From a virus (taxonomy: Duplodnaviria > Caudoviricetes), in the IMG/VR virus record IMGVR_UViG_3300042479_000799, positions 18,197-82,196 of that record: a DNA stretch of 64,000 nucleotides; one strand, 5' to 3'. Positions 23,173 through 62,980 of this stretch are shown one piece after another. Below the pieces are notes generated by a model. That model was not told the DNA's origin. It made no database searches and saw nothing but the letters and a program-made list of their open reading frames with translations. Numbering within the stretch: position 1 is the first letter of the stretch; each line of letters starts with the position of its first letter. The position numbers and the translations under genes were made by a program.

Positions 23173-23706
23173 TCAAAGATTATTTCTGTAGAATGACATG
23201 ATAATTCCACTGGTAGTCCCAACATTGAGTGAACGAACACTTCCAAAAGCTGGGATTGTTATGACAGTTTCAGCATTATCAAGAATATAATCACTTAACC
23301 CACTCTTTTCTTCACCAAACACAAACATTGGTTTATCTACACCACAAAATACCCACGGATTAAAAATAGAAACAGTTTTATCACTATACTTGGGAATATT
23401 GTTTTCTACAGCGAGTAGTGTATAACCATTATCTTTGAGAGAACTAACAAATTCCACTTCAGTCTTGATATGCTTTAAATCAGTATAATGATGCGTACCA
23501 ACAGTACCACGACGATCCCATTGCTTGCTACCACCTACATAAAATGCTTCCTTAAAACCAAAGAAATTGGCGTTTCTAACAAGAGTAGACAAATTAAAAT
23601 CTCCATTTACATGCATCATTGCGACACCAGCTTCAATGGAAGTAGACTTACAATAAGATTTAATATCGTCTACAGTTGAACTCTTCAAGTGATCCAAAAC
23701 ATTCAT
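23173..23706 (-). CDS. SpoU/TrmH-family RNA 2'-O-methyltransferase
   Basis: NLSTLVRNA, VFGEEKSGLS, IPAFG.VRSLNV SPOUT motifs. Confidence 0.88.
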   Translation of the reverse strand: MNVLDHLKSSTVDDIKSYCKSTSIEAGVAMMHVNGDFNLSTLVRNANFFGFKEAFYVGGSKQWDRRGTVGTHHYTDLKHIKTEVEFVSSLKDNGYTLLAVENNIPKYSDKTVSIFNPWVFCGVDKPMFVFGEEKSGLSDYILDNAETVITIPAFGSVRSLNVGTTSGIIMSFYRNNL

Positions 23707-30320: not shown

Positions 30321-31337
30321 TTATTCTTTGCTTCCAAGAAGATATACATTACTAATAGCCTTGAAACTAAATTCTCGTTCAAGACCACGAACAACTACAC
30401 CCTCACGGTCAACATCCGCATTCAATACACTCTTACCCTCAGCATACTTCAACATATTATCAACCAAATTTTCATTGGGTAATACATATCCATACTTTTC
30501 AAGCACAGGTACCATAGGTACGTCAAACCTAAACAACAACCATTCCAGTTCATCGAAGAACATACGACGACCCTTATCAATATCATATCCAGTAAAGAAA
30601 AATAACTTGTGGTCAGTCAATTGATACAAATTACCATTGATATTTGAACCAATCAATTCTCCCTGAAGTGCAATGTTCTTGCCATACTTAGTCAACTTAT
30701 CCTTCAACTCAAGCATATTAGCCATACGCCATAAACTATTGTCATTGGTTTCAGTCAATTCCCAATTACGGCCACATACACCAAATACACCATTATTGAA
30801 GTAACAAGTAAAACTGGTACCATCTAACTTTTCAGTAACATACACTCGTTCTCCAAAAGGCACAAAACCAACATCAGTTTCAAAGTTCTGAATACGAATT
30901 TCATCAGTCTTTGGAATAAAACTAGGAAATGTACCCTTGATCTTTCCAGCCAATTGAGCAGGAATAGGTGGTTCATATTTTACAATATCAAGAGCTTCAG
31001 TCAAATCATCACCTTCCTTTGGATTAAGAATACCATCTGGAATTGGAGTCAATAGTCCTTGACTCAATTGTCCACGCAACTTAATGGTCTTAAGACGAAA
31101 TCCTTCAGATGATACCATACGCTTATAACTACTCTTGCGTAGAAATTCAAACTGAGGCCGAATAGGTAAGAAGCTGTCAATTTCATAGTAAACAGCCAAA
31201 TCACCCACATTAAATTCCCCCTTTTTCACAACAACCTTCCAACCCTTGACACTAGCCACAACAATGGCATCAGCACCAACAATAGGTTGAATGTCAACGA
31301 TTTTTACAACACTAGCCAATTTACGTTCAGTAGTCAT
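30321..31337 (-). CDS. RNA ligase, DRB0094 (Rnl5) family
   Basis: N-terminal RKLAS..I..I.PI.GAD OB fold, FIPKTDE, TEKLDGTS, LQGELIG, REGVVVR, FKAIS. Confidence 0.92.
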   Translation of the reverse strand: MTTERKLASVVKIVDIQPIVGADAIVVASVKGWKVVVKKGEFNVGDLAVYYEIDSFLPIRPQFEFLRKSSYKRMVSSEGFRLKTIKLRGQLSQGLLTPIPDGILNPKEGDDLTEALDIVKYEPPIPAQLAGKIKGTFPSFIPKTDEIRIQNFETDVGFVPFGERVYVTEKLDGTSFTCYFNNGVFGVCGRNWELTETNDNSLWRMANMLELKDKLTKYGKNIALQGELIGSNINGNLYQLTDHKLFFFTGYDIDKGRRMFFDELEWLLFRFDVPMVPVLEKYGYVLPNENLVDNMLKYAEGKSVLNADVDREGVVVRGLEREFSFKAISNVYLLGSKE

Positions 31338-31361
31338 ATTTACTTTTTCTATTACTCCTAA

Positions 31362-31390
31362 AGATTACCACAGACTTTAAACGAAGTCAA
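31362..31390 (-). promoter_or_regulatory. sigma70-like promoter (extended -10)
   Basis: TTGACT-N17-TAATCT preceded by GTGG. Confidence 0.6.
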
Positions 31391-31391
31391 C

Positions 31392-31419
31392 AAAAAATCC
31401 CATCTTTTTACGGATGGGA
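31392..31419. terminator. Terminator-like hairpin
   Basis: TCCCATC / GATGGGA with A tract. Confidence 0.6.
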
Positions 31420-31427
31420 CTGTAACG

Positions 31428-32102
31428 TTAATGATGTTTATCTTTGCTTACATGATTCTTGTTCATCATAATTTTCTGAATCTCTGGAAAAGACAACGGC
31501 TTACCATGACCATCCCAACCCACATCCAAAATTTTATTGTCTGGATTTTCCAACCGAGTGGTTGGATTGCTATAGTGACTATGTCCACTCAACTGACAAG
31601 CACCTTTTTGCATTTGATTCCAAATTTGGTGTGGGTAATGATGAATAACAATCATATGACCATTTACAATCAGTTCCTTATAATAACCCAGATAAGTTAG
31701 TTTACCAATTGTATATGGATACACTTCAATGCCATCATTAGGATTGTTACCACTGAATCTAACCAAATTCAAATGGCCAGCAACAGCATCTTCATAGTGT
31801 CTACGAATACAACTGTTGTGATTACCCCAAATATACAGAATGCTTTGACAATTGATTCTGTTGAGAATTACATCAAATTCAGGCGGAGTAATGTTTAGAC
31901 AAAAATCACCCAGATGAATTAGTGTATCTTGTGGACGTACTACTTCATTAATCTTTGCAATCAACGCATCATTGTGTTCATAACGATTCTTATATCCTCT
32001 AGTTTCATATATGAATTTTTGATCATGGTTAAAATGAGTATCACTGGTGAAATACACACGGTGACTATCATTATGTGTTAGTTTTAGTGGTCTTTCAAAC
32101 AT
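31428..32102 (-). CDS. Metallophosphoesterase (RNA end-healing type)
   Basis: TSDTHFNH, HLGDF, WGNH, HHYP, SGHSH, DVGWD. Confidence 0.85.
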   Translation of the reverse strand: MFERPLKLTHNDSHRVYFTSDTHFNHDQKFIYETRGYKNRYEHNDALIAKINEVVRPQDTLIHLGDFCLNITPPEFDVILNRINCQSILYIWGNHNSCIRRHYEDAVAGHLNLVRFSGNNPNDGIEVYPYTIGKLTYLGYYKELIVNGHMIVIHHYPHQIWNQMQKGACQLSGHSHYSNPTTRLENPDNKILDVGWDGHGKPLSFPEIQKIMMNKNHVSKDKHH

Positions 32103-32553
32103 AAATTATTACATCAATTCCTTCACTATATGAAGGTTCTTCAAACTTGTTCAACATTTTGTCAATGACAAAATCAGGTACAACTCTACCGCCTTGTTCT
32201 CCTCGTTTCTTATTTCTATCAATTAATCCTTGACGATCCATCTTGAACACAATAGCAACTACTTTTGCACCATATTTCTTTGCGGTGTTGATATAGTCAC
32301 TTCGTTCTTTACGGTTTACACTGGTTGCATCAACCAATACATTTTTACCATCTTTTAGAAGTTCGTCAACCTTTTTTTTGATGTGTCCAAAAACGATTGA
32401 TGTTACTGATTGGTCAGTCTCATCTTTGCCATATACAGCACGTAGTGAATCACTGCTTAGATATTCTATGTCTTTATCTTTAATAAAGTTCTTGACATAA
32501 GTGGACTTACCACTTCCAGGCAATCCAACCGTAATATAAAGTGTATTATTCAT
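32095..32553 (-). CDS. Polynucleotide kinase-like P-loop protein (AAA_33)
   Basis: GLPGSGKSTY, SSDSLR, VDATS, RNKKR. Confidence 0.85.
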   Translation of the reverse strand: MNNTLYITVGLPGSGKSTYVKNFIKDKDIEYLSSDSLRAVYGKDETDQSVTSIVFGHIKKKVDELLKDGKNVLVDATSVNRKERSDYINTAKKYGAKVVAIVFKMDRQGLIDRNKKRGEQGGRVVPDFVIDKMLNKFEEPSYSEGIDVIIYV

Positions 32554-32686
32554 ATGTACATCTTAATTCAACTTGTTATAAAGTCAAGAAAATTGTAAAG
32601 GAAAAGTAAAACTTGTTTATTTCATATAGGTAGTATAGTATGTATAGAATGTAATCTATGGTGGTTACTAAACGAAAGGAAAATAT

Positions 32687-33025
32687 ATGTATAAGTATCT
32701 ATTAGTGTTAGTCGCAGCATTTACCCTAAACGCTGAGCTTTTAGGCCCCCCAAATGCTCAACAAGGTAAACCTCCCGGTGAAGGCCGTCCATTCCGTCCC
32801 AAGTTGACGGAAGAACAAAAGAAGCAACGTAATGAATTGATTGCTAAATATGACGCAAACAAAGATGGTAAGATGGACAAGGAAGAACGTGCCAAAGTCA
32901 GTGATGCTGACCGTAAATTAATGAGAAGTTTTGGTCCTCCTCCTGGCGGTCCAAGAGGTCCAAAACATGATGGTCCTCCTCCAACTAAAGATGGTAATAG
33001 ACCAAGTAAACCAAAGAAAGATTAA
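32687..33025 (+). CDS. Secreted EF-hand protein
   Basis: Signal peptide MYKYLLVLVAAFTLNA; loop DANKDGKMDKEE; P/G-rich flanks. Confidence 0.75.
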   Translation: MYKYLLVLVAAFTLNAELLGPPNAQQGKPPGEGRPFRPKLTEEQKKQRNELIAKYDANKDGKMDKEERAKVSDADRKLMRSFGPPPGGPRGPKHDGPPPTKDGNRPSKPKKD

Positions 33026-33032
33026 ATCAAAT

Positions 33033-33059
33033 AACCTCACTTTTATAGTGGGGTTTTTT
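33033..33059. terminator. Terminator between convergent genes
   Basis: AACCTCACT / AGTGGGGTT followed by T tract. Confidence 0.7.
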
Positions 33060-33381
33060 ATTTCTTGCGTCTTTTTGGTTTTTGTGTGGGTGTTTTATTA
33101 CCACCTAATTTTTCTATAAAGTTTTCACTAATAATTTCCACTAACTTTAAACCTATGAATCCCGCAATGAATGCAATACCATTTTGATTTTTAATACTGG
33201 TAATATTCAATAATTCTACCAAGACTGGCGTTAAATAGTTAGCAGCTGCCATACCACCTATCAATGATAATACTACAGATTTTACATCTGTTTTATCTGA
33301 TTTTGTTGTCATTAAGATTGCGCCAAATAAACCACTGAATAAGAATCCTATTTGGATACCGAATTTTTGTAAGTATTCCAT
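33058..33381 (-). CDS. Holin-like small membrane protein
   Basis: Three hydrophobic helices and a very basic C-terminal tail (KPKRRKK). Confidence 0.55.
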   Translation of the reverse strand: MEYLQKFGIQIGFLFSGLFGAILMTTKSDKTDVKSVVLSLIGGMAAANYLTPVLVELLNITSIKNQNGIAFIAGFIGLKLVEIISENFIEKLGGNKTPTQKPKRRKK

Positions 33382-33384
33382 ATA

Positions 33385-34005
33385 TTATTTTTTTCTTTTG
33401 ATTCTTTTTCTTATTTTTGTAACGGGTTTATTTTCTTGTTTTATAAGATATACCATTCCTAATATTATGAAACAAAGTGTATATAGATATATGTTTAATT
33501 TAACTATTTCATCTTTGATAATCTTTTCAGAACTATCATTGATTAATGTTCTAAAATTTTGATTGTTTTCTATTATTCTTCTTTTGTAATCCAAATATTT
33601 ATCACTGAAAAATGCTTTATTATCCATCTTTTCAAATGCTGGATTTTCTACATCTTTAGCCAAGTCACTGCTTATGTCCAATCCTTTTCTAAATTCTTTT
33701 AGTTCATCTTGGGTTAATATCTTGCTCGTCAAGATTTCCTCGTTAAAGTATTTTTCCCGTTCTTTTAAGTGTTCATTAAATTGATTAAGAAACTTTTTAT
33801 CAGCGGTTGTTGTATATGCTACGCCTAGATAAGTTAACAAGTCAGTAGACTTTCGTAAATATAGTGTAATATCTCTACCAAATCTAAATCTGGTATAACT
33901 TTGTTCTATGTCTTTAAGACTGGAAATAGATAATAAGGTTATAACTGCTACGGGTAATAATACAAACCATAGGTAACTTTTAATTTTTATAATAACACTG
34001 TTCAT
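33385..34005 (-). CDS. Two-TM protein resembling a chemoreceptor/kinase extracytoplasmic sensor domain, no output domain
   Basis: TM - STDLLT..AY..T.DKKFL...GLDISSDL...FFSDKYLDYK - TM - short basic tail. Confidence 0.5.
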   Translation of the reverse strand: MNSVIIKIKSYLWFVLLPVAVITLLSISSLKDIEQSYTRFRFGRDITLYLRKSTDLLTYLGVAYTTTADKKFLNQFNEHLKEREKYFNEEILTSKILTQDELKEFRKGLDISSDLAKDVENPAFEKMDNKAFFSDKYLDYKRRIIENNQNFRTLINDSSEKIIKDEIVKLNIYLYTLCFIILGMVYLIKQENKPVTKIRKRIKRKK

Positions 34006-34046
34006 ATGTTATTATATAACTATTATAAAAAGATTAATATGATGTA

Positions 34047-34433
34047 TTATCTTTTAATCTTGAAATTGAAGTCTATTACTAAACCTTCGTTTATTGACCA
34101 CATTGTTAATTTTTCGTGTATATCTTGTAGATTTTCTCTTACTGTTTTTGACATTAAATCATCAATTATATCAATAATGGTGAATGTGGTTTCAATTTGT
34201 TTGTCTTTATTTGGCAATATAACCATTTTTAATTTTTTTTCAAATTGTATGTCATTGCCATAACTTTGTATCAAAATTCTATGTAATTCTAATATATAAG
34301 ATCTTAAATGATCAATATCACTACCAGTTACGGTTGAAACAATGGTTAAATCTTCATTCGGTCTAAATCCAGGTGCAAAATCTATTTCACATAAACATTC
34401 TTTTATCAATTGTTTTAATTCTGTTTTGGTCAT
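34047..34433 (-). CDS. Leader-bearing late hypothetical protein
   Basis: MTKTELKQLIKECLCE; TATTTATA 5 nt upstream. Confidence 0.6.
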   Translation of the reverse strand: MTKTELKQLIKECLCEIDFAPGFRPNEDLTIVSTVTGSDIDHLRSYILELHRILIQSYGNDIQFEKKLKMVILPNKDKQIETTFTIIDIIDDLMSKTVRENLQDIHEKLTMWSINEGLVIDFNFKIKR

Positions 34434-34454
34434 ATCAATATAAATATTGACTTG

Positions 34455-34487
34455 AAATAAAAAACCCCACTAAATTAATAGCGGGGT
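34455..34487. repeat. Terminator-hairpin direct repeat, copy 1
   Basis: AAATAAAAAACCCCACTAAATTAATAGCGGGGT; 32/33 identical to 35279-35311. Confidence 0.85.
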
Positions 34488-34509
34488 CTTTGATTAATAT
34501 TTTACTAGT

Positions 34510-35238
34510 TTATTGTTCAAAAAATCCTCTACCAAGCATTTTTTCGGCTTTTTCAATTGCTAATGTAAGTATTTTTACATCTTGTACATCTTTTTTATAA
34601 TCCGCATTTTTTAAACGATTTAGAAGTTCATCGTAATTACTACCAAGTTCTGCTTTTAATTTTTGTTTATTATCTGGAATAAGAGCAAGTAATAACAATC
34701 TTGCAATTTTTCTTTTATTATCTAATCTCTTGTATTTTTGCCATCCAATCGTTCCGAGAGTTTGTATCAAACTACTCACTGGTTTTTTGAGCTTTTCCAC
34801 TTCATTTCTTTCTTTCTGGTTTATATCACTTATGTCCGAATATTCTTTTTCTCGTTCTGTCCAGCTTTTATACGCTCCTGTATCAAATTTAGCGGAACTG
34901 CCCCTAACATCATATGGTTTAAAATTATCAGTTTTTTCCCAATTATTTTTACCTTGATACTTAATTTGATTCAAATATCTTACAAAATTATCTTCATCAG
35001 TACTAAGAGAATATCTAGCATAACCTGCTACAGTTTCTTTGAATTTATTACGTGCTTCTTCTTCGGGACTGACATATGGACCTAATTTATCTCTGGGGTC
35101 TGTTTTGTATCCATCACCATCTGAACGCATTTCACCACCTATGGTGGCTACGTCGTCCCATCGTTCATTTATATTTAAGTGTTTGTGAAGCAATTTAAGA
35201 TGCTTTTGAAATGTTTCGCTTAGTATGTCTTTGCTCAT
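34510..35238 (-). CDS. Leader-bearing late hypothetical protein
   Basis: MSKDILSE...LNINE; lies between the two repeats. Confidence 0.6.
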   Translation of the reverse strand: MSKDILSETFQKHLKLLHKHLNINERWDDVATIGGEMRSDGDGYKTDPRDKLGPYVSPEEEARNKFKETVAGYARYSLSTDEDNFVRYLNQIKYQGKNNWEKTDNFKPYDVRGSSAKFDTGAYKSWTEREKEYSDISDINQKERNEVEKLKKPVSSLIQTLGTIGWQKYKRLDNKRKIARLLLLALIPDNKQKLKAELGSNYDELLNRLKNADYKKDVQDVKILTLAIEKAEKMLGRGFFEQ

Positions 35239-35278
35239 AATTTAAAATTTCTTTGTATTAAATATAAATATATAGAAA

Positions 35279-35311
35279 AAATAAAAAACCCCACTAAATT
35301 AATAGTGGGGT
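35279..35311. repeat. Terminator-hairpin direct repeat, copy 2
   Basis: AAATAAAAAACCCCACTAAATTAATAGTGGGGT. Confidence 0.85.
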
Positions 35312-35327
35312 TAACTATTTTAAATAT

Positions 35328-35543
35328 TTACTTTTTACAAACGAATTCTTGATAAACTCGTTCTGCTCTAGCTAATGCATCACTAAGTGGAATATCACCA
35401 ATATATTCAAGTGGTTTTCCACTTTTTTCAGCGTTGTATTGAGCTATTTCTCTTTTATTATACCATTCATCTTTGGTTAGCTGAACCATTTCTCTTAGAA
35501 TTTCCCAACGCAATTCGTAGGGAGTTTTATTATTATCTGCCAT
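35328..35543 (-). CDS. Small phage hypothetical protein
   Basis: KTPYELRWEIL...; start adjusted to ATG 35543. Confidence 0.55.
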   Translation of the reverse strand: MADNNKTPYELRWEILREMVQLTKDEWYNKREIAQYNAEKSGKPLEYIGDIPLSDALARAERVYQEFVCKK

Positions 35544-35626
35544 ATTTTTCCTTTGTGTTTGTGTGTTATGATAGCCGTATTTGACTATCACTTATACATA
35601 TGTAAGAAAACCCCTACCAATTTATT

Positions 35627-36730
35627 TTAATTCTTTAGAACTTGAAATAGTAACTTCTTATATTCATCCTTACCAAATGACTTACCATCCAGTAACTTGA
35701 ATACAAAAGCAGCCCTGTTTGTTTCACCATATGATGATATAACCAATTGTGCTTGTTCCTTTCGTGAAGGCAATGAACGAAGTCTGTTATTAACAAAATT
35801 ATTCATACCATCCACAATCTTGTTGACTTCCTTCTTACCATCCACAATACGGCTAATCATTCCTTTAACCTGTTCTGCTAACTCAAAATCAAAAGTGGTA
35901 AAGATATAGTTATAGAAAGTCTGATAATCAGGCATACCCTGTTCTAGCCAGACATCCAATACTTTTTCAATGTTACTTAGTTCTGACTTCATATGATGTA
36001 GAGCAAGATACCAAGCACCCTTTACCTTGTGAAGCATTTGGTCATTCTTTGAATAAACAACCACACCTTCCTTACCTCTCCATTGATCAACATCCTTTAA
36101 CAGATCTTGAACACTAGAAAAAGTATAAGTAGCAGGACGCTTGAAGCCATACTTCTTGCTCCACATGTCAAGTTCTGATTGAGTAAACAGTGAATAATCA
36201 CTGTGGTTAACAATACCAACAATATACCAATCAGGCTCTTCACCATAATTGAGAACAATTTTGTTGATAGGGCTAACCCACTCAAACAACAAAGACACAT
36301 TCCAAGTTTCAGGTGTAGCCATACCCAATCTTTGAAGACTATCTTTGAAACGCTCCTTGAAAATTTCAAGTTCGTGACCATTAGCCATAGTAGAAGCATC
36401 AACAGTTCCACGGGTACGCAGAATATATTGACCATTATACTTGCTAACAATTAAAGTGCTACCGTCCAACTTTTCAACTACAGTAGTATTCTTTAGTGAT
36501 GTAGGAACAGGAAAGTGTTCGGGATTCTCCCCATAGTTGGTAAACTTTGGAAACGATGCACTAATAACTTCACCCGCATAATTCACAACCACACTACGCA
36601 TGTGCTTGTTGTCTTGTCGCCATTGCGTTCCGATGTGTTGTGGCTGAATCAAATGGACAATTTCACCGTTAAGTGAATGTTCATGCACCATAAATTGGGT
36701 GCGGTCAATTGAGGAAATATCAATCTTCAT
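35627..36730 (-). CDS. RNA ligase, T4 Rnl1-like
   Basis: RSVV...ISASFPKFTNYGE, EKLDGS, RTRG, FEWVSP.NKIV, EGVVV, KVKG.WY. Confidence 0.85.
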   Translation of the reverse strand: MKIDISSIDRTQFMVHEHSLNGEIVHLIQPQHIGTQWRQDNKHMRSVVVNYAGEVISASFPKFTNYGENPEHFPVPTSLKNTTVVEKLDGSTLIVSKYNGQYILRTRGTVDASTMANGHELEIFKERFKDSLQRLGMATPETWNVSLLFEWVSPINKIVLNYGEEPDWYIVGIVNHSDYSLFTQSELDMWSKKYGFKRPATYTFSSVQDLLKDVDQWRGKEGVVVYSKNDQMLHKVKGAWYLALHHMKSELSNIEKVLDVWLEQGMPDYQTFYNYIFTTFDFELAEQVKGMISRIVDGKKEVNKIVDGMNNFVNNRLRSLPSRKEQAQLVISSYGETNRAAFVFKLLDGKSFGKDEYKKLLFQVLKN

Positions 36731-38244: not shown

Positions 38245-38757
38245 TTAAATGTCAAATACTTTTCCGTTCAAAAATCCATTTAAATTTAGCTTACCGTCAA
38301 AAATTCTAAGTTTAAGATTTGACTCTTCCATCATTGTTTTAGACACTTTAGATAAATCTTGCCAATCCGAATGTTTCATTTCTGGCCACAACGAATGAAT
38401 TACAATTTCATGTATACCACTCTGTATGATAGATTTCATACAATTATTGCATGGTAATCCGTTTGTATAAAGTGTTGAACCCAATGTAGATATACCAAAT
38501 CTTGCAGCAGTTAATATACTATTGTGTTCTGCATGAACTACATATTTATATTTTGTTTCTCTGTTATTATACCGTTCATCTGAATCTAATACTCCAATAG
38601 GAAATCCATTATAACCTGTACTGATGACACGATTGTCTTTAACAATTACAGCTCCTATTTTACTAGATGGATCTTTACTTTTTGTAGCCGTCAAATAAAC
38701 CATTCGCATGAATAGTTCATCAAAACAAGGAGCTTTATAATTTTCAAAAGTATCCAT
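38245..38757 (-). CDS. dCMP deaminase
   Basis: SKDPSSKIGAVIV, TGYNG, VHAEHN, PCNNC; start set at ATG 38757. Confidence 0.92.
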   Translation of the reverse strand: MDTFENYKAPCFDELFMRMVYLTATKSKDPSSKIGAVIVKDNRVISTGYNGFPIGVLDSDERYNNRETKYKYVVHAEHNSILTAARFGISTLGSTLYTNGLPCNNCMKSIIQSGIHEIVIHSLWPEMKHSDWQDLSKVSKTMMEESNLKLRIFDGKLNLNGFLNGKVFDI

Positions 38758-38759
38758 GT

Positions 38760-39332
38760 TTAATCCCATAATTGAAAATAATATTCTGCAAATAGTTGCA
38801 TTCCTCTTTTGCGACGTTCTTCTAACTCAGCTGATTTTTCAAAGTATTCTTTCCAAGCTTGTTTTTCTTCTGGTGTTTTTTCTCTATTGATATTATCAAT
38901 ATATTTATTCATATCAATAATGTCATCTTTTATTCTAGGAATTGGATTGAATCTTTCATCATCATTCATATATTCAAATGTCCAGATAATTTCATCCAAT
39001 ATTTCATTCCATCGTTCAGGTGTAATATCAGCTGGATGTGTATTAACATTTATTTTTTTAAAATGTTTCAGTCTGGGTAAAATAAACTTTGTAAGTGTAC
39101 TCTCTAAACTCCAACATTCAGCATCACTTACACCATAACGAATACGTTGGTATGTATTAATACACCACCGTCTTAATTCAACACACCTATAATATACACG
39201 CCAACCATATGGCACAGTGTCAAACAACCAATCAAAAAATCTATTGGTACGATACCACTTTTCTTCAGATTCAATTGGTGTTTTTTCTGATCTCTCCAAC
39301 CGCATGTTAATTTCTTTGATAGGAACATTCAT
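38760..39332 (-). CDS. Conserved-looking phage hypothetical protein
   Basis: WSLESTL..FILPRL..F...W..ILDEII...G..LF.EY...LWD. Confidence 0.6.
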   Translation of the reverse strand: MNVPIKEINMRLERSEKTPIESEEKWYRTNRFFDWLFDTVPYGWRVYYRCVELRRWCINTYQRIRYGVSDAECWSLESTLTKFILPRLKHFKKINVNTHPADITPERWNEILDEIIWTFEYMNDDERFNPIPRIKDDIIDMNKYIDNINREKTPEEKQAWKEYFEKSAELEERRKRGMQLFAEYYFQLWD

Positions 39333-42246: not shown

Positions 42247-42322
42247 TGGTGGGTCAAACCGGACTTGAACCGATAACCAAAGAATTATGAGTTCTACGCT
42301 CTAACCATTGAGCTATTGACCC
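42247..42322 (-). tRNA. trnI: tRNA-Ile2 (CAT, lysidine type), probable
   Basis: Canonical cloverleaf, loop CTCATAA, encoded CCA; resembles ileX-type tRNAs more than Met. Confidence 0.8.
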
Positions 42323-42338
42323 GTACTATTACTAAAAC

Positions 42339-42413
42339 TGGAGCGATATCTCGGACTTACACCGGCCTTGTGGACTGGAAGGCCCACCGTGCTCCTCATG
42401 ACACTAATATCGC
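42339..42413 (-). tRNA. Non-canonical tRNA-Gly-like (TCC, 8-nt anticodon loop)
   Basis: GCGATAT/ATATCGC acceptor, U73, CCA; loop CCTTCCAG; T-loop TGTAAGT. Confidence 0.65.
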
Positions 42414-42421
42414 ATTAAAAC

Positions 42422-42494
42422 TGGAGCGAATCCGAACTTTGCATTTCGCCTTTTAGTCTGGTAGACTAACGTGCCCTCTTTACACTTGATTCGC
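42422..42494 (-). tRNA. Non-canonical tRNA-Gly-like (ACC)
   Basis: GCGAATC/GATTCGC acceptor, U73, CCA; loop CTACCAG; T-arm CGAA-ATGCAAAG-TTCG. Confidence 0.65.
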
Positions 42495-42510
42495 ATTAAT
42501 TTCAAAAAAA

Positions 42511-42586
42511 TGGTAGGCGTGAGTGGATTCGAACCACCGCTTTACAGATTTTAAGTCTGTTGACTCTTCCGCTGGTCTACACGCCC
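42511..42586 (-). tRNA. trnL: tRNA-Leu (TAA), short variable loop
   Basis: ACAGA-CTTAAAA-TCTGT, GTTCGAATC T-arm, CCA; 76 nt. Confidence 0.85.
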
Positions 42587-42627
42587 ATTTAAATTACTTA
42601 CAAAGAACTATTACTTACTACTTATTC

Positions 42628-42655
42628 ATCTTACCACATCTTACTCACTTGTCAA
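42628..42655 (-). promoter_or_regulatory. sigma70-like promoter in the tRNA cluster
   Basis: TTGACA-N16-TAAGAT with TGTGG extension, followed by boxA-like GTTCTTT. Confidence 0.7.
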
Positions 42656-42672
42656 ACAAGTTTTTCAAAAAA

Positions 42673-42756
42673 TGGTGGCTATGGAGGGACTTGAACCCCC
42701 ACGGTTTAACCCGGTTGATTTTGAGTCAACTACGTCTGCCATTCCGTCACATAGCC
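42673..42756 (-). tRNA. trnL: tRNA-Leu (CAA)
   Basis: GTTGA-CTCAAAA-TCAAC, long variable arm, CCA. Confidence 0.92.
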
Positions 42757-42766
42757 GTTTTTAAAA

Positions 42767-42858
42767 TGGTAGCCTCATGCAGAATCGAACTGCCCAGAAC
42801 GCCAATCGAGCGATTATAGAGATTATAAGTCTCCCCATGCACCTTACATCTTGAGGCC
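42767..42858 (-). tRNA. tRNA-Ile (TAT)-like with long variable region
   Basis: GGAGA-CTTATAA-TCTCT, 23-nt variable region, TTCGATT T-loop, CCA; 92 nt. Confidence 0.7.
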
Positions 42859-42864
42859 ACTAAA

Positions 42865-42942
42865 TGGTAGCGGATGTGGGAGTCGAACCCACTATCTCAC
42901 TGGTTATGAGCCAGGAATGATTTTCCGTTTCACTCACCCGCA
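42865..42942 (-). tRNA. trnM: tRNA-Met (CAT), initiator-like copy A
   Basis: T1:T72 mismatch, CTCATAA loop, TTCGACT T-loop, CCA. Confidence 0.8.
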
Positions 42943-42966
42943 AATTGTTTTGTTAAAGAACTAAAA

Positions 42967-43038
42967 TGGTTGGAACGGTGGGTGCTGCCCCCACTTAAAC
43001 TGGCTTATGAAACCTGTTTCTTTGCTGAAAGCGCTCCA
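42967..43038 (-). tRNA. Aberrant CAT tRNA-like gene
   Basis: TGGAGCG/CGTTCCA acceptor, CCA, TTCATAA loop, shrunken D region, T-loop GGCAGCA. Confidence 0.55.
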
Positions 43039-43044
43039 ATTAAA

Positions 43045-43123
43045 TGGTAGCGGGTACAGGAGTCGAACCTGTTATCACTAACGTTATGAGCGTTGTATGG
43101 TAATTCCGTGCCACTCACCCGCA
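43045..43123 (-). tRNA. trnM: tRNA-Met (CAT), initiator-like copy B
   Basis: TGCGGGT/ACCCGCT with T1:T72 mismatch; paralogue of 42865-42942. Confidence 0.8.
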
Positions 43124-43149
43124 AATTGTTTATAAAGAACCGTAAAAAT

Positions 43150-43312
43150 TGTGTTGGGTGTAATTATTGAATACTTTGTCCACCCAACAAACAAAGTATA
43201 CCACTTGCTAACCCCGCAACCAAGAAGTTTTTTAAGAGAACTTCCAACTCTAGGGGTGTTATGGTTTAACGCCCTCCACCAGACCGTTTCTTTTAAGCAA
43301 CGGACAAACAAA
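43150..43312 (-). ncRNA. Candidate structured ncRNA (four hairpins plus 3' H-type pseudoknot)
   Basis: Stems read directly from the sequence; lies between tRNA genes with no plausible ORF. Confidence 0.5.
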
Positions 43313-43313
43313 G

Positions 43314-43389
43314 TGGTAGAGCCATGGAGAATCGAACTCCAATCTATTCCGTGAAAGGGAATTATCCTAAACCGTTAGACGATGACTCC
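43314..43389 (-). tRNA. trnE: tRNA-Glu (TTC)
   Basis: ATTCC-CTTTCAC-GGAAT, canonical arms, CCA. Confidence 0.9.
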
Positions 43390-43396
43390 GTTAAAA

Positions 43397-43473
43397 TGGT
43401 GGCCCCGGTGGGACTCGAACCCACGACCAAAAGCTTAAAAGGCTTCTGCTCTAACCAACTGAGCTACAAGGCC
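43397..43473 (-). tRNA. trnK: tRNA-Lys (TTT)
   Basis: GAAGC-CTTTTAA-GCTTT, canonical arms, CCA. Confidence 0.95.
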
Positions 43474-49680: not shown

Positions 49681-50202
49681 TTACAAATTGATATATAATT
49701 TCTTACCATCTTTACCACTATATTTAAATCTAGTAACAGGAACAGATAAACTTAATCCTTCTTTAATATGTGGAAATTTACCCTTTTGAACATATGCAAG
49801 TGTCATATGTGGTTTATAATCTGTATACTTATCTTCATTCTTATAACAATCGCATCTGCGTCTTATTTCAGATAGTATTTCATTTTTTTCCACATCAAAC
49901 TTAACCACATCATATTTTTCATTTTGAAATTGAGTCAATCCAGTTAGTTTAATGATAAATGGTTTGATGCCTTGTAGGATAGTGGCTAAATTGGCCCTTG
50001 TTAAGTCAGGAGAATATCCATACTTAGCTGTTATATGCGGTTCATCATCATAACCATAGGAATTGTCATTAGGATCTGTATAAAGAATTTGCGGTGGTAT
50101 TACTGTTTTACCAAATTTAATTATATGTGGTCCTCTGGTTGGTTCAACTATAGCCATCAAACAACCATATTCATTGTGTCTATTTTCTGTAATTAATTTC
50201 AT
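49681..50202 (-). CDS. 2H phosphoesterase, Acb1/T4 57B-like
   Basis: Two HxT motifs: EPHITAKYG and YKPHMTLAY. Confidence 0.75.
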   Translation of the reverse strand: MKLITENRHNEYGCLMAIVEPTRGPHIIKFGKTVIPPQILYTDPNDNSYGYDDEPHITAKYGYSPDLTRANLATILQGIKPFIIKLTGLTQFQNEKYDVVKFDVEKNEILSEIRRRCDCYKNEDKYTDYKPHMTLAYVQKGKFPHIKEGLSLSVPVTRFKYSGKDGKKLYINL

Positions 50203-60995: not shown

Positions 60996-61208
60996 TTAGA
61001 TTAAATAAAACAACCCTTTTGAATTATAAACTACAATTCTAATCTTGGTGTCATTATCTTTAATGATACCAAGTTTATCTGAAATTTGAAATGGACCTGG
61101 ATGATTACTTGTACGAACACCCATGACTTTATCTTTTATTTTATATACATCCAAATCTGTATTAACAACACTTGCGTGATATTGTCTTCCCAAAGGTATC
61201 ATTTTCAT
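60996..61208 (-). CDS. Hypothetical protein
   Basis: ATGA-coupled to the cyclase gene. Confidence 0.5.
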   Translation of the reverse strand: MKMIPLGRQYHASVVNTDLDVYKIKDKVMGVRTSNHPGPFQISDKLGIIKDNDTKIRIVVYNSKGLFYLI

Positions 61209-62980
61209 AATGGTTTATTTGTTTTTGGTTCTGCTTTTGTTACTCTACTTGATGGAAATTCTTTGTTGCCAAAGTCACTGCCATGTAAACTATATAAGTG
61301 CATCACTACACCGTGTTTTACAACCACATCTCCTAAATCATTCACTAATACATATGCGGGTCTATCATATTTCAACATTACAGCTGAACTAACCAATAAA
61401 TGATTTGTTTCACCAGCATCCATTACTCTTTGAGCATAATTGATGCCGTCACCACTTATATTCAAATTACCATTGATATCCTCCATTGGAATTACAGGCC
61501 CACAATGTACACCCATTCTCATTTGTAAGTCGGGTCTATCCTTTACTGCCTTAGCTATAGCAACGGCACAATTCATTGCATCTTCCAAATAAGTGAAAAA
61601 TCCCATTACCATACCATCACCAGTAGGTAATATAATTAACTTCTCAAGAGCATTAGCAGTCTTATATTGCATTGTTGATTTAACTAATACACCCAAATCT
61701 TTACATGCTTTCTTTTGTTCATCCGTAGTCTTCTTACTATACGCAACAATGTCCATAAAGAATATATAACCTTCTTGTTCTACATCCAATTGCAATCTAC
61801 CTGATTTGACTTCTATATCAACTTGTTCAACTTTCTTGACAATTTGTTTAACGGGTTTAATGACTTCTACTTTCTTTTCTTCTTTCTTTTCTACAACTGG
61901 AATATCTTTAAGTTTCAAAAAGTCTTTCCAGTTAATCTTCTTTGCTGGTGCATCTTTCTTTTTTGGTTCTTTTGCAGTTTGTTCTGATTCTAGTTTTTTT
62001 ATTGCTTCTTCTTCACGATTACGCTTTTCAATGAATAACGCAATTTGTTTCTTAACTTCATCTGTAATATAAATGTTTACATCTTTACCGTTACCACCTG
62101 TGTCATGTTTCTTCTTTCTTAACGCACCTTTGGCTTGTAAATAACTTTGCATTTCTACATTACCTGTCTTGAATGCTATGTCTAACGGAGCAATTTCACC
62201 CTTAAAATCTGCACCATTAACATTTGCGCCCAAATGTACCAAAAACTCCGTCATATCAACATCGTTAGCATTAACAGCATAATGTAATGGCATCCAACCA
62301 TTCTTTTCATCTCTACCATTAATTTTACCATCTTTATCAAAAAATGATTGTACACCTTCAAAATCACCTGTTTCAGCACAAAAATGAATATTAACACCAC
62401 CGGAAGATTTAGCACCGTTTTTATTTAACAACTTAACAATTTCACCTCTATTAACATTGGATAACACATCTATTGGATTGTTTTTGCCTAAGAAATCTTT
62501 CTTGTTGACATCAGCACCTTTAACAATTAAATATTCAACCAAGTGTTTTTGTCCATAATTAACCGCATAGTGTAGTGCGGTCCAACCTTTACCAGCGTCA
62601 ACTTCATTGATATCTTGTTTTTTACTCAACATTTCTTCAATAGAAACAATATCACCATTCTTAGCAGCCAAATGAAAACTGCTACCACTACTATACTTCC
62701 CTCCTCGTTGTTGCAATAATTCTGAAATAGGTTTAAACCCCTTTTGTTCTGATATATCTAATGCGGTATTTTTGCTTGTCCAATCTTTTACATTTACATC
62801 CGCACCACGATTTAATAACAATTTGACTATTTCTATTTGATTTTCTTCTACCGCAACAACCAATGGTGGATTACCAGTGTCATCATCCCTTTGATTGACA
62901 TCCACTTTCTCTTTTTCTATACAATTGTAAACATTATCAAATAATCCTCGTCTTATATGTGTAAAAATATTGATTGCCAT
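61205..62980 (-). CDS. Ankyrin-repeat / class III nucleotide cyclase fusion
   Basis: About nine ankyrin repeats; FMDIVAYSK, PTGDG, RMGVHCGPV, GDGINYAQRV. Confidence 0.88.
   Translation of the reverse strand: MAINIFTHIRRGLFDNVYNCIEKEKVDVNQRDDDTGNPPLVVAVEENQIEIVKLLLNRGADVNVKDWTSKNTALDISEQKGFKPISELLQQRGGKYSSGSSFHLAAKNGDIVSIEEMLSKKQDINEVDAGKGWTALHYAVNYGQKHLVEYLIVKGADVNKKDFLGKNNPIDVLSNVNRGEIVKLLNKNGAKSSGGVNIHFCAETGDFEGVQSFFDKDGKINGRDEKNGWMPLHYAVNANDVDMTEFLVHLGANVNGADFKGEIAPLDIAFKTGNVEMQSYLQAKGALRKKKHDTGGNGKDVNIYITDEVKKQIALFIEKRNREEEAIKKLESEQTAKEPKKKDAPAKKINWKDFLKLKDIPVVEKKEEKKVEVIKPVKQIVKKVEQVDIEVKSGRLQLDVEQEGYIFFMDIVAYSKKTTDEQKKACKDLGVLVKSTMQYKTANALEKLIILPTGDGMVMGFFTYLEDAMNCAVAIAKAVKDRPDLQMRMGVHCGPVIPMEDINGNLNISGDGINYAQRVMDAGETNHLLVSSAVMLKYDRPAYVLVNDLGDVVVKHGVVMHLYSLHGSDFGNKEFPSSRVTKAEPKTNKPL

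Follow-up and report, generated by a model that had tools for sequence, protein, structure and literature searches.

Two genes on the minus strand of the stretch of phage DNA analysed here (64,000 nucleotides (nt), the window) look like genes for glycine tRNA (tRNAGly). They lack the TTC of an ordinary T arm and are passed over by tRNA finders. The question that this locus raises is whether the two genes, E1 and E2, give rise to tRNAs that decode glycine codons, to remnants of such tRNAs, or to RNAs that carry glycine for a purpose outside translation. The window belongs to a large, freshwater, T4-like or jumbo-type phage with 31% G+C, and a preliminary description made from its letters only had proposed non-ribosomal glycine donors or decoys. 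Comparison with related sequences leads us to conclude, with high confidence, that E1 and E2 are real, conserved RNAs derived from tRNAGly that keep the set of nucleotides by which glycyl-tRNA synthetase (GlyRS) recognizes its tRNA.

Both RNAs fold into a cloverleaf at minimum free energy (RNAfold). From 5' to 3', E1 can be divided into GCGAATC AA GTGT AAAGAGG GCAC G TTAGT CTACCAG ACTAA AAGG CGAA-ATGCAAAG-TTCG GATTCGC T CCA and E2 into GCGATAT TA GTGT CATGAGGA GCAC G GTGGG CCTTCCAG TCCAC AAGG C-CGG-TGTAAGT-CCG-AG ATATCGC T CCA. They have in common a perfect 7-bp acceptor stem that starts with GCG at the 5' end, U73, an encoded CCA, a GUGU/GCAC D stem and an AAGG variable region. The acceptor stems themselves are GCGAATC/GATTCGC in E1 and GCGATAT/ATATCGC in E2. 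The anticodon loop of E1 has 7 nt (CUACCAG) with the anticodon ACC, and U33 and A37 are kept; that of E2 has 8 nt (CCUUCCAG) with the core UUCCA, and the D stem of E2 closes the loop CAUGAGGA. There is a T arm of 16 nt in E1, made up of a 4-bp stem (CGAA/UUCG) and an 8-nt loop, AUGCAAAG, and the pairs 49-65, 50-64 and 51-63 of its stem are C-G, G-C and A-U. In E2 three Watson-Crick pairs carry the T loop UGUAAGU, the outer pairs do not match, and the junction with the acceptor stem is disrupted by C.A and an extra G, which in a 5/7/5 frame become G49.G65 and C50.A64. Position 8 is A in E1 (A8) and position 14 is C in E2 (C14). The preliminary description had listed the acceptors, U73, CCA, C35 and C36, the D stems and AAGG, as well as the 8-nt anticodon loop of one copy and the ACC anticodon of the other, and all of these are present.

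Homologues of E1 and E2 are found on 24 IMG/VR phage contigs, in 18 distinct variants. A pattern of the shared core gave 21 of these contigs and two looser patterns added three; first-pass matches in L022-L027, L030, L031, L033 and L034 were discarded as GC-rich chance matches. The copies occupy two slots. The first holds either the E1 type (acceptor GCGGGUC, loop CUACCAG) or a type termed E2a (acceptor GCGGAAU, loop CUACCAG or CUUCCAG). The second, occupied in about half of the contigs, holds a type termed E2b (acceptor GCGAUAU or GCGGUGU) with an anticodon loop of 6 nt (AUUCCA or AUUCCU) or of 8 nt as in E2, and in one contig a third type instead. There are seven distinct E1 orthologues, and other contigs hold 11 distinct E2-type variants, with anticodon loops of 6, 7 or 8 nt; the 6- or 8-nt loops of the second slot are stable across eight distinct variants. 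The spacer between the genes is kept in relatives that have both E1 and E2 copies, and the trailer after E2, GUUUUAGU, resembles it.

A covariance model, R1, was built from the E2-type copies. It scores family members at 49-102 bits (E1, 53.1; E2, 100.3) and canonical tRNAs at 30 bits or less, and a scan of the window gave no copy beyond E1 and E2. In a model-based alignment of the 18 sequences, 98.5% of cells pair and double changes are present in 11 of the 19 pairs. The covariation score of 0.553 is not reached by any of 500 shuffles, whose value is 0.189, and sliding the partners gives no more than 0.149. Pairs 1-3 of the acceptor stem are constant, pairs 4-7 vary with perfect compensation and the anticodon stem co-varies; among the seven E1 orthologues there are compensatory changes in both of these stems. 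All 18 variants have G1-C72, C2-G71, G3-C70, U73, C35, C36 and CCA, and these nucleotides, CCA apart, are the bacterial GlyRS identity set. Position 34 switches between A and U even among close E2a copies, and U33-N-C35-C36 is kept, with U33 in some doubt. The T loop starts with U54-G55 throughout and varies in length (13 nt in some copies), and the T arm of E2 is unchanged in 11 variants, where the mismatches G49.G65 and C50.A64 are fixed in the canonical frame.

The explanation that E1 and E2 are decaying tRNA pseudogenes without function, to which their being missed by standard tRNA finders might point, is extremely unlikely because there are compensatory changes in all four helices, near-complete pairing and constant identity nucleotides in the 18 variants. 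The earlier statements that the structure is maintained despite divergent stems and that GlyRS identity is intact are thus borne out, and the conserved homologues whose absence was to mark simple pseudogenes exist on the 24 contigs.

We compared both RNAs with canonical tRNAs, taking as criteria the RF00005 gathering score of 29 bits and a call by tRNA finders. ARAGORN calls nine other tRNAs in the window, E1 and E2 not being among them, and Rfam RF00005 leaves both unlisted even at E<=10 in a search of 1.4 kb. The 7-bp acceptor, 4-bp D and 5-bp anticodon stems are present, with 100%, 100% and 94% of cells paired. The anticodon loop of E1 is a canonical 7-nt loop with U33 and a purine at position 37; that of E2 has 8 nt, and those of its orthologues 6 or 8 nt. 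Neither E1 nor E2 has the canonical 5-bp T stem, 7-nt U54-U55-C56 T loop and U8/A14. A search of 185,579 cellular species genomes with the E2 T-arm pattern gave no match. INPHARED holds no close relative of the window phage: only tRNAs were matched, and a 938-aa protein was without a match.

Taken together, these features suggest a role for which glycine identity matters and decoding does not, and with moderate confidence we favour the reading that E1 and E2 do not decode and instead carry glycine for a GNAT-fold transferase of the phage, which would be DruA-like and/or Mom. The two RNAs would be expressed from the tRNA array in which they lie; presumably they are co-transcribed with it and processed like tRNAs, and excision by the normal tRNA-processing enzymes is probable because of the cloverleaf fold and the encoded CCA. 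Host GlyRS probably loads them with glycine, since every known bacterial GlyRS determinant is kept. No GlyRS or EF-Tu gene was found in G001, a complete relative of 295,831 bp that carries E1, or in G002, a 73% complete relative that carries E2a and E2b, so charging would fall to the host enzyme. The affinity of EF-Tu is set by pairs 49-65, 50-64 and 51-63, and glycine needs a tight tRNA body (PMC7826273). In E1 and E2 the features for EF-Tu delivery and triplet decoding appear to be relaxed or lost, and EF-Tu and the ribosome would exclude them; with these features lost, a private pool of glycine donors that does not compete with translation would be the most likely role. This pool may be used by an aminoacyl-tRNA-dependent GNAT-fold transferase of the phage, with DruA-like and/or Mom-type proteins as candidates. 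The pattern of selection across the variants looks as expected if charging by GlyRS is selected and triplet decoding, at least by E2, is not.

The preliminary description called for a search for transferases that use charged tRNA and pointed to two GNATs in the window as candidates. There are two small GNATs in the window, but the one that was located is an ordinary small Acetyltransf_1 protein. In the relatives, no Fem family or Acetyltransf_6 member (PF02388, PF13480) was found in G001 or G002; two Mom proteins and a DruA-like GNAT-fold protein are present among them as candidate transferases. Mom of phage Mu has a GNAT fold and moves glycine from Gly-tRNAGly to N6 of adenine in double-stranded DNA, R111 and S124 being essential; the study used host isoacceptors and describes no phage tRNA (PMC13219725). 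Both Mom genes are in G001 (PF25680, 169 and 145 bits) and both match PDB 8bv8; in their products the counterparts of R111 and S124 are preserved, given the inferred numbering offset of the alignment. Another relative, G017, is collinear with 1.5-16.7 kb of the window at 71-86% identity and has one Mom gene and one DruA-like gene. By collinearity these lie about 44-50 kb beyond the window start and G001 is arranged alike (71-88% nucleotide identity), which would place the DruA and Mom genes of the window phage upstream of the window, at a distance of about 44-50 kb from its start. A contig walk from the window toward them reached polB and the clamp loader, not that far.

DruA-like genes (PF14236) are present in G001, G002 and G013, the last being a separate complete phage of 216 kb with Mom, DruA and a five-tRNA cluster. 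They occur on six of the contigs that carry E1 or E2 elements, three of the six being of the E1 plus E2 (8-nt loop) type seen in the window. In addition, at 59.7-60.4 kb of G002 (L134:1264-1989 (-)) there is a 241-aa open reading frame whose DruA match, at 24.6 bits, is weak and falls short of the cut-off; it lies inside the tRNA array, about 700 nt upstream of E2a and E2b, and has no counterpart in the other element loci.

Outside the lineage of the window there is a closer association between tRNAGly and DruA. In 9 of 80 DruA-like loci (L207, L209, L210, L212-L215, L218 and L224, at about positions 360-445), which belong to a subclade at 47-50% identity, a tRNA-Gly gene is located about 60 nt upstream of the DruA-like gene on the same strand. 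It is the sole tRNA gene in seven of the nine records (up to 78 kb), the other two having one further tRNA. The anticodon is UCC in eight and ACC in one (L215). These tRNAs are nearly canonical: they have U73 and a TTC T loop, reach 47-63 bits with RF00005 and lack an encoded CCA. They have A8-A9-GUGU in common with E1; R1 scores them at 39-45 bits, above its limit for canonical tRNAs. In G013 a solitary Gly-like RNA with the loop CGUCCAG, the T loop UGCGAUU and no encoded CCA lies 22 kb from the tRNA cluster. A tRNA-Gly that travels with a DruA-like gene and tolerates A34 would seem to fit a donor better than a decoding role. Somewhat short of even confidence, we extend the proposal to large aquatic phages at large: their private, non-decoding glycyl carriers may feed DruA and Mom GNAT-fold enzymes, and DruA proteins may form a new class of Gly-tRNA-dependent transferase, which would act, for example, in the modification of DNA or other macromolecules. 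This would account for the lone tRNA-Gly gene before a DruA-like gene in some phages.

Several observations weigh against the proposal that E1 and E2 are private glycine carriers. There is no Mom (PF25680) or DruA (PF14236) homologue in the 64-kb window, and G002, 73% complete, has E2a and E2b and no Mom. A search with R1 around 85 Mom loci (1.5 kb) and around close DruA loci (0.5 kb) gave no match, and in the lineage of the window neither a Mom nor a DruA gene adjoins the RNAs. With at least 497 relatives in IMG/VR, DruA-like genes are so common that their co-occurrence with the elements is weakly informative. In the AlphaFold model (pLDDT 87.6) the DruA-like protein adopts a GNAT fold, with Mom as its nominal best structural match (Z 9.7, root mean square deviation 3.8 Å, 179 residues); ordinary GNATs follow at Z 8.9-8.0, and the lead of Mom is inside the tie margin. 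Sequence kinship between DruA and Mom was considered and rejected (hhalign profile-profile probability 0.2). The 7-nt loop of E1 is intact, and next to its acceptor stem the T stem has four Watson-Crick pairs. The anticodons ACC and UCC fit the two main glycine codons of the phage, GGU and GGA, as the other tRNAs of the array fit theirs. Finally, a cloverleaf scan of tRNA clusters shows that N54-G55-C56 T loops are common in apparently ordinary tRNAs of the relatives.

This last result changes how the T arms are to be read. They had been described as broken and without TTC; TTC is indeed absent and the stems are short, but TGTAAGT of E2 is, in the 5/7/5 frame, a U54-G55 variant of an ordinary 7-nt loop. 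The related T loop TGCAAGT is found in the Tyr, Thr and Ser tRNAs of one relative, and among the relatives as a group G55 is found in tRNAs for Cys, Tyr, Asn, Thr, Pro, Ser, Asp, Ile, Lys and Phe. These T loops accompany D loops with AG in place of GG, and several of the tRNAs, each the only one of its kind, are recognized as tRNAs by Rfam and ARAGORN. Absence of TTC alone is therefore not diagnostic: the G55 elbow is a trait of the lineage and no proof of a non-ribosomal role. E1 and E2 still stand apart in having a T stem that is short or disrupted, A8 (E1) or C14 (E2), a variable loop length, the ACC anticodon and redundancy with canonical tRNAGly. The wide occurrence of G55 elbow-variant tRNAs in these phages is a result in its own right. 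At many sites in L035 (G001:190000-203000) the T loops TGCAAGT, TGCGAGT, AGCGTAA, GGCAGTA, GGCGGAA and CGCAAGC are found; positions 54 and 58 of the elbow variants co-vary (U-A, A-U, G-G), and several are missed by ARAGORN and Rfam. One member of this class, with a CAU anticodon and the T loop GGCAGCA, is located in the window.

The lineage trait also bears on the alternative that E1 and E2 are working translation tRNAs with an unusual elbow, E1 (ACC) reading GGU and E2 (UCC core) reading GGA, to supplement the host for the glycine codons preferred by this AT-rich phage. The frequency of G55 T loops and AG D loops in apparently functional tRNAs of the relatives, including sole Cys, Tyr and Asn copies, speaks for decoding; T stems of 3-4 bp, with the pairs read by EF-Tu mismatched in E2, and A8 of E1, where U8 is near-universal, argue against it. 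The match to codon use is the strongest argument for this alternative. In 40 open reading frames of the window the glycine codons are GGU (57%), GGA (33%), GGC (7%) and GGG (3%), and the other array tRNAs match the favoured codons UUA, UUG, AGA, AAA, GAA and AUA. Position 34, on the other side, is A in some and U in others of the close E2a copies, and likewise of the tRNAs linked to DruA, a change that is not neutral for decoding; in addition ACC is, to our knowledge, essentially unused as a glycine anticodon in cells. ARAGORN finds no canonical tRNAGly in the 64-kb window, which speaks for decoding, whereas in G001 there are already, in addition to E1, canonical glycine tRNAs of the same acceptor stem, tRNAGly(GCC) and tRNAGly(UCC). 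The location of both genes inside a tRNA array, with encoded CCA, and the 7-nt loop of E1 with U33 and A37 are as expected of decoders; the stable 6- or 8-nt loops of the second slot in eight variants are not. We consider decoding rather unlikely overall, and more likely for E1 than for E2.

The length of the second-slot loop suggests a further alternative, in which the E2-type copies are recoding tRNAs, the 8-nt loop causing +1 and the 6-nt loop -1 shifts at phage sites that contain GGA. An 8-nt anticodon loop is the classic form of +1 frameshift suppressor tRNAs, and G001 has an otherwise canonical tRNA with such a loop (L035:11002-11077 (-); ARAGORN anticodon CUCU). No frameshifted gene was identified, however, loop length is 6, 7 or 8 nt among orthologues of otherwise similar phages, and the T-arm defects count against efficient use by the ribosome. 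Recoding is thus a very improbable role. G001 also has its own tmRNA (L035:383-767 (-)), with the tag AEDNVISYNFTSRDAVALAA.

The positions of E1, E2 and the surrounding features are given in Table 1. The array runs in the order Lys-UUU, Glu-UUC, Met, Met, Ile-UAU-like, Leu-CAA, Leu-UAA, E1, E2, Met, and the T loops of its tRNAs have canonical TTC, with the exception of the tRNA with a CAU anticodon. The tRNA with the anticodon UAU (Ile AUA) has a long, class II-like variable arm, which is unusual for Ile; it is kept in most related loci and is called by ARAGORN, with an Rfam score below the gathering score. A sub-threshold match to the wcaG RNA motif (32.9 bits compared with a gathering score of 42, E 5.5e-4) lies between tRNA genes.

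Table 1. Positions in the 64-kb window of E1, E2 and the other features discussed
Feature	Position	Strand	Description
E1	42494..42422	(-)	73 nt, tRNAGly-like cloverleaf RNA
E2	42413..42339	(-)	75 nt, tRNAGly-like cloverleaf RNA
Spacer, CCA of E1 to G1 of E2	42414..42421	(-)	8 nt, GUUUUAAU
tRNA array including E1 and E2	42247..43473	(-)	All with encoded CCA; ARAGORN, Rfam and our own cloverleaf scan
tRNA-Leu(UAA)	42586-42511		Flanks E1/E2 on one side
tRNA-Met	42322-42247		Flanks E1/E2 on the other side
tRNA with anticodon UAU	42767-42858	(-)	92 nt
tRNA with anticodon CAU	42967-43038	(-)	T loop GGCAGCA
wcaG RNA motif match	43209-43313	(-)	RF01761
RNA-repair genes	30324-36730 and 49684-50202	(-)	Two RNA ligases, a kinase and a phosphoesterase
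Deaminase	38248-38769		dCMP/ComEB-like
Ankyrin-repeat cyclase protein	61208-62980	(-)	591 aa

The RNA-repair genes of the window encode a T4 Rnl1-like ligase, a DraRnl-type ligase (TIGR02306, 189 bits), a Pnkp-like kinase and a 2H/LigT phosphoesterase. Heavy investment in tRNA repair of this kind would be in keeping with another explanation, that E1 and E2 act as decoys or sponges against tRNAGly-targeting toxins of host defence, to which they would offer an acceptor end and an anticodon loop while translation does not depend on them. tRNAGly is a favoured target of such toxins: the toxSAS FaRel2 reads G1-C72, C2-G71, G4-C69 and R5-Y68, and the GNAT toxins AtaT2 and TacT acetylate Gly-tRNAGly (PMC11559606). 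Most E1 orthologues (GCGGG...) have every FaRel2 determinant, but E1 (GCGAA) and E2 (GCGAT) of the window are without G4-C69 and G5-C68, and toxins that read only the acceptor would not require the conservation of C35 and C36. Toxins are also catalytic, so that a stoichiometric decoy would be a weak defence; no defence or toxin partner was identified, and the physical linkage of DruA and tRNAGly in other phages is left unexplained. We regard a decoy role as improbable.

The other genes of the window include those for a dCMP deaminase, ThyA and DHFR. TadA-like editing of A34 was considered and rejected: the window deaminase is dCMP/ComEB-like (76 bits) and matches TadA with only 27.6 bits. The window also encodes a cREC_REC domain protein and a SpoU methylase (23176-23706). 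A further protein of the window combines about nine ankyrin repeats with a class III nucleotidyl cyclase domain in one chain, an uncommon find in a phage.

A search of the literature gave no paper describing a dedicated phage tRNAGly of the E1/E2 kind. Dedicated non-ribosomal tRNAs have been documented so far only in staphylococci, for cell-wall synthesis (PMC7826273), and the use of Gly-tRNAGly by a phage enzyme for DNA modification was published only in 2026, with host tRNAs only (PMC13219725). If E1 and E2 are private glycine carriers, they would flag a class of tRNA-like genes that standard annotation overlooks, would offer a handle on the biochemistry of the DruA family, a component of Druantia defence as well, and could serve two different enzymes, one through the 7-nt ACC loop of E1 and the other through the 8-nt UUCC loop of E2.

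Four known systems can be compared with E1 and E2. The tRNAs of phage T5 evade tRNA-targeting defences by changes in sequence (PMC10264068). Like these, E1 and E2 would be phage tRNA variants shaped by conflict with the host, with tRNA repair genes alongside; unlike E1 and E2, in which loop length and T arm are altered, the T5 tRNAs are normal decoders with substitutions in the anticodon loop. Mom of phage Mu, a phage enzyme with a GNAT fold, uses charged tRNAGly as its source of glycine, and it has two homologues in G001 and one in G017. Mu, however, relies on host isoacceptors, whereas here Mom is absent from the window and from G002 and no Mom gene adjoins the RNAs. The DruA family (PF14236; DruA of Druantia) is linked to E1 and E2 by the six contigs that they share, by its predicted GNAT fold and by Mom as nominal best match. 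In the DruA subclade with an adjacent tRNA-Gly, the tRNA resembles E1 in A8-A9-GTGT, U73 and a UCC or ACC anticodon; it is nearly canonical, whereas E1 and E2 are remodelled and lie in an array, far from a DruA-like gene.

The nearest parallel is with the non-proteinogenic (NP) tRNAGly of Staphylococcus aureus and S. epidermidis, already drawn in the preliminary description. NP1-NP3 donate glycine to FmhB, FemA and FemB and have a T loop with TGC or TGT, not TTC (PMC7826273). The triplet does match, E1 having TGC and E2 TGT, but in the phages it is found lineage-wide in other tRNAs, so that G55 is not confined to the Gly copies, and the genomes of the relatives have yielded no Fem transferase. 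E1 and E2 also differ in being encoded by a virus, in their shortened T arm, in anticodon loops that can have 6 or 8 nt and in an anticodon that can be ACC. The NP lineage is confined to staphylococci (PMC7826273) and the likeness would therefore be convergent. It consists of extra tRNAGly paralogues beside normal ones, with GlyRS identity kept, a T loop without pseudouridine at position 55 (Psi55) and a T stem that may be unsuited to EF-Tu, and it extends to the proposed logic of a glycine pool without competition with translation. If our reading of E1 and E2 is correct, phages resolve the competition between translation and tRNA-dependent modification in the same way as staphylococci.

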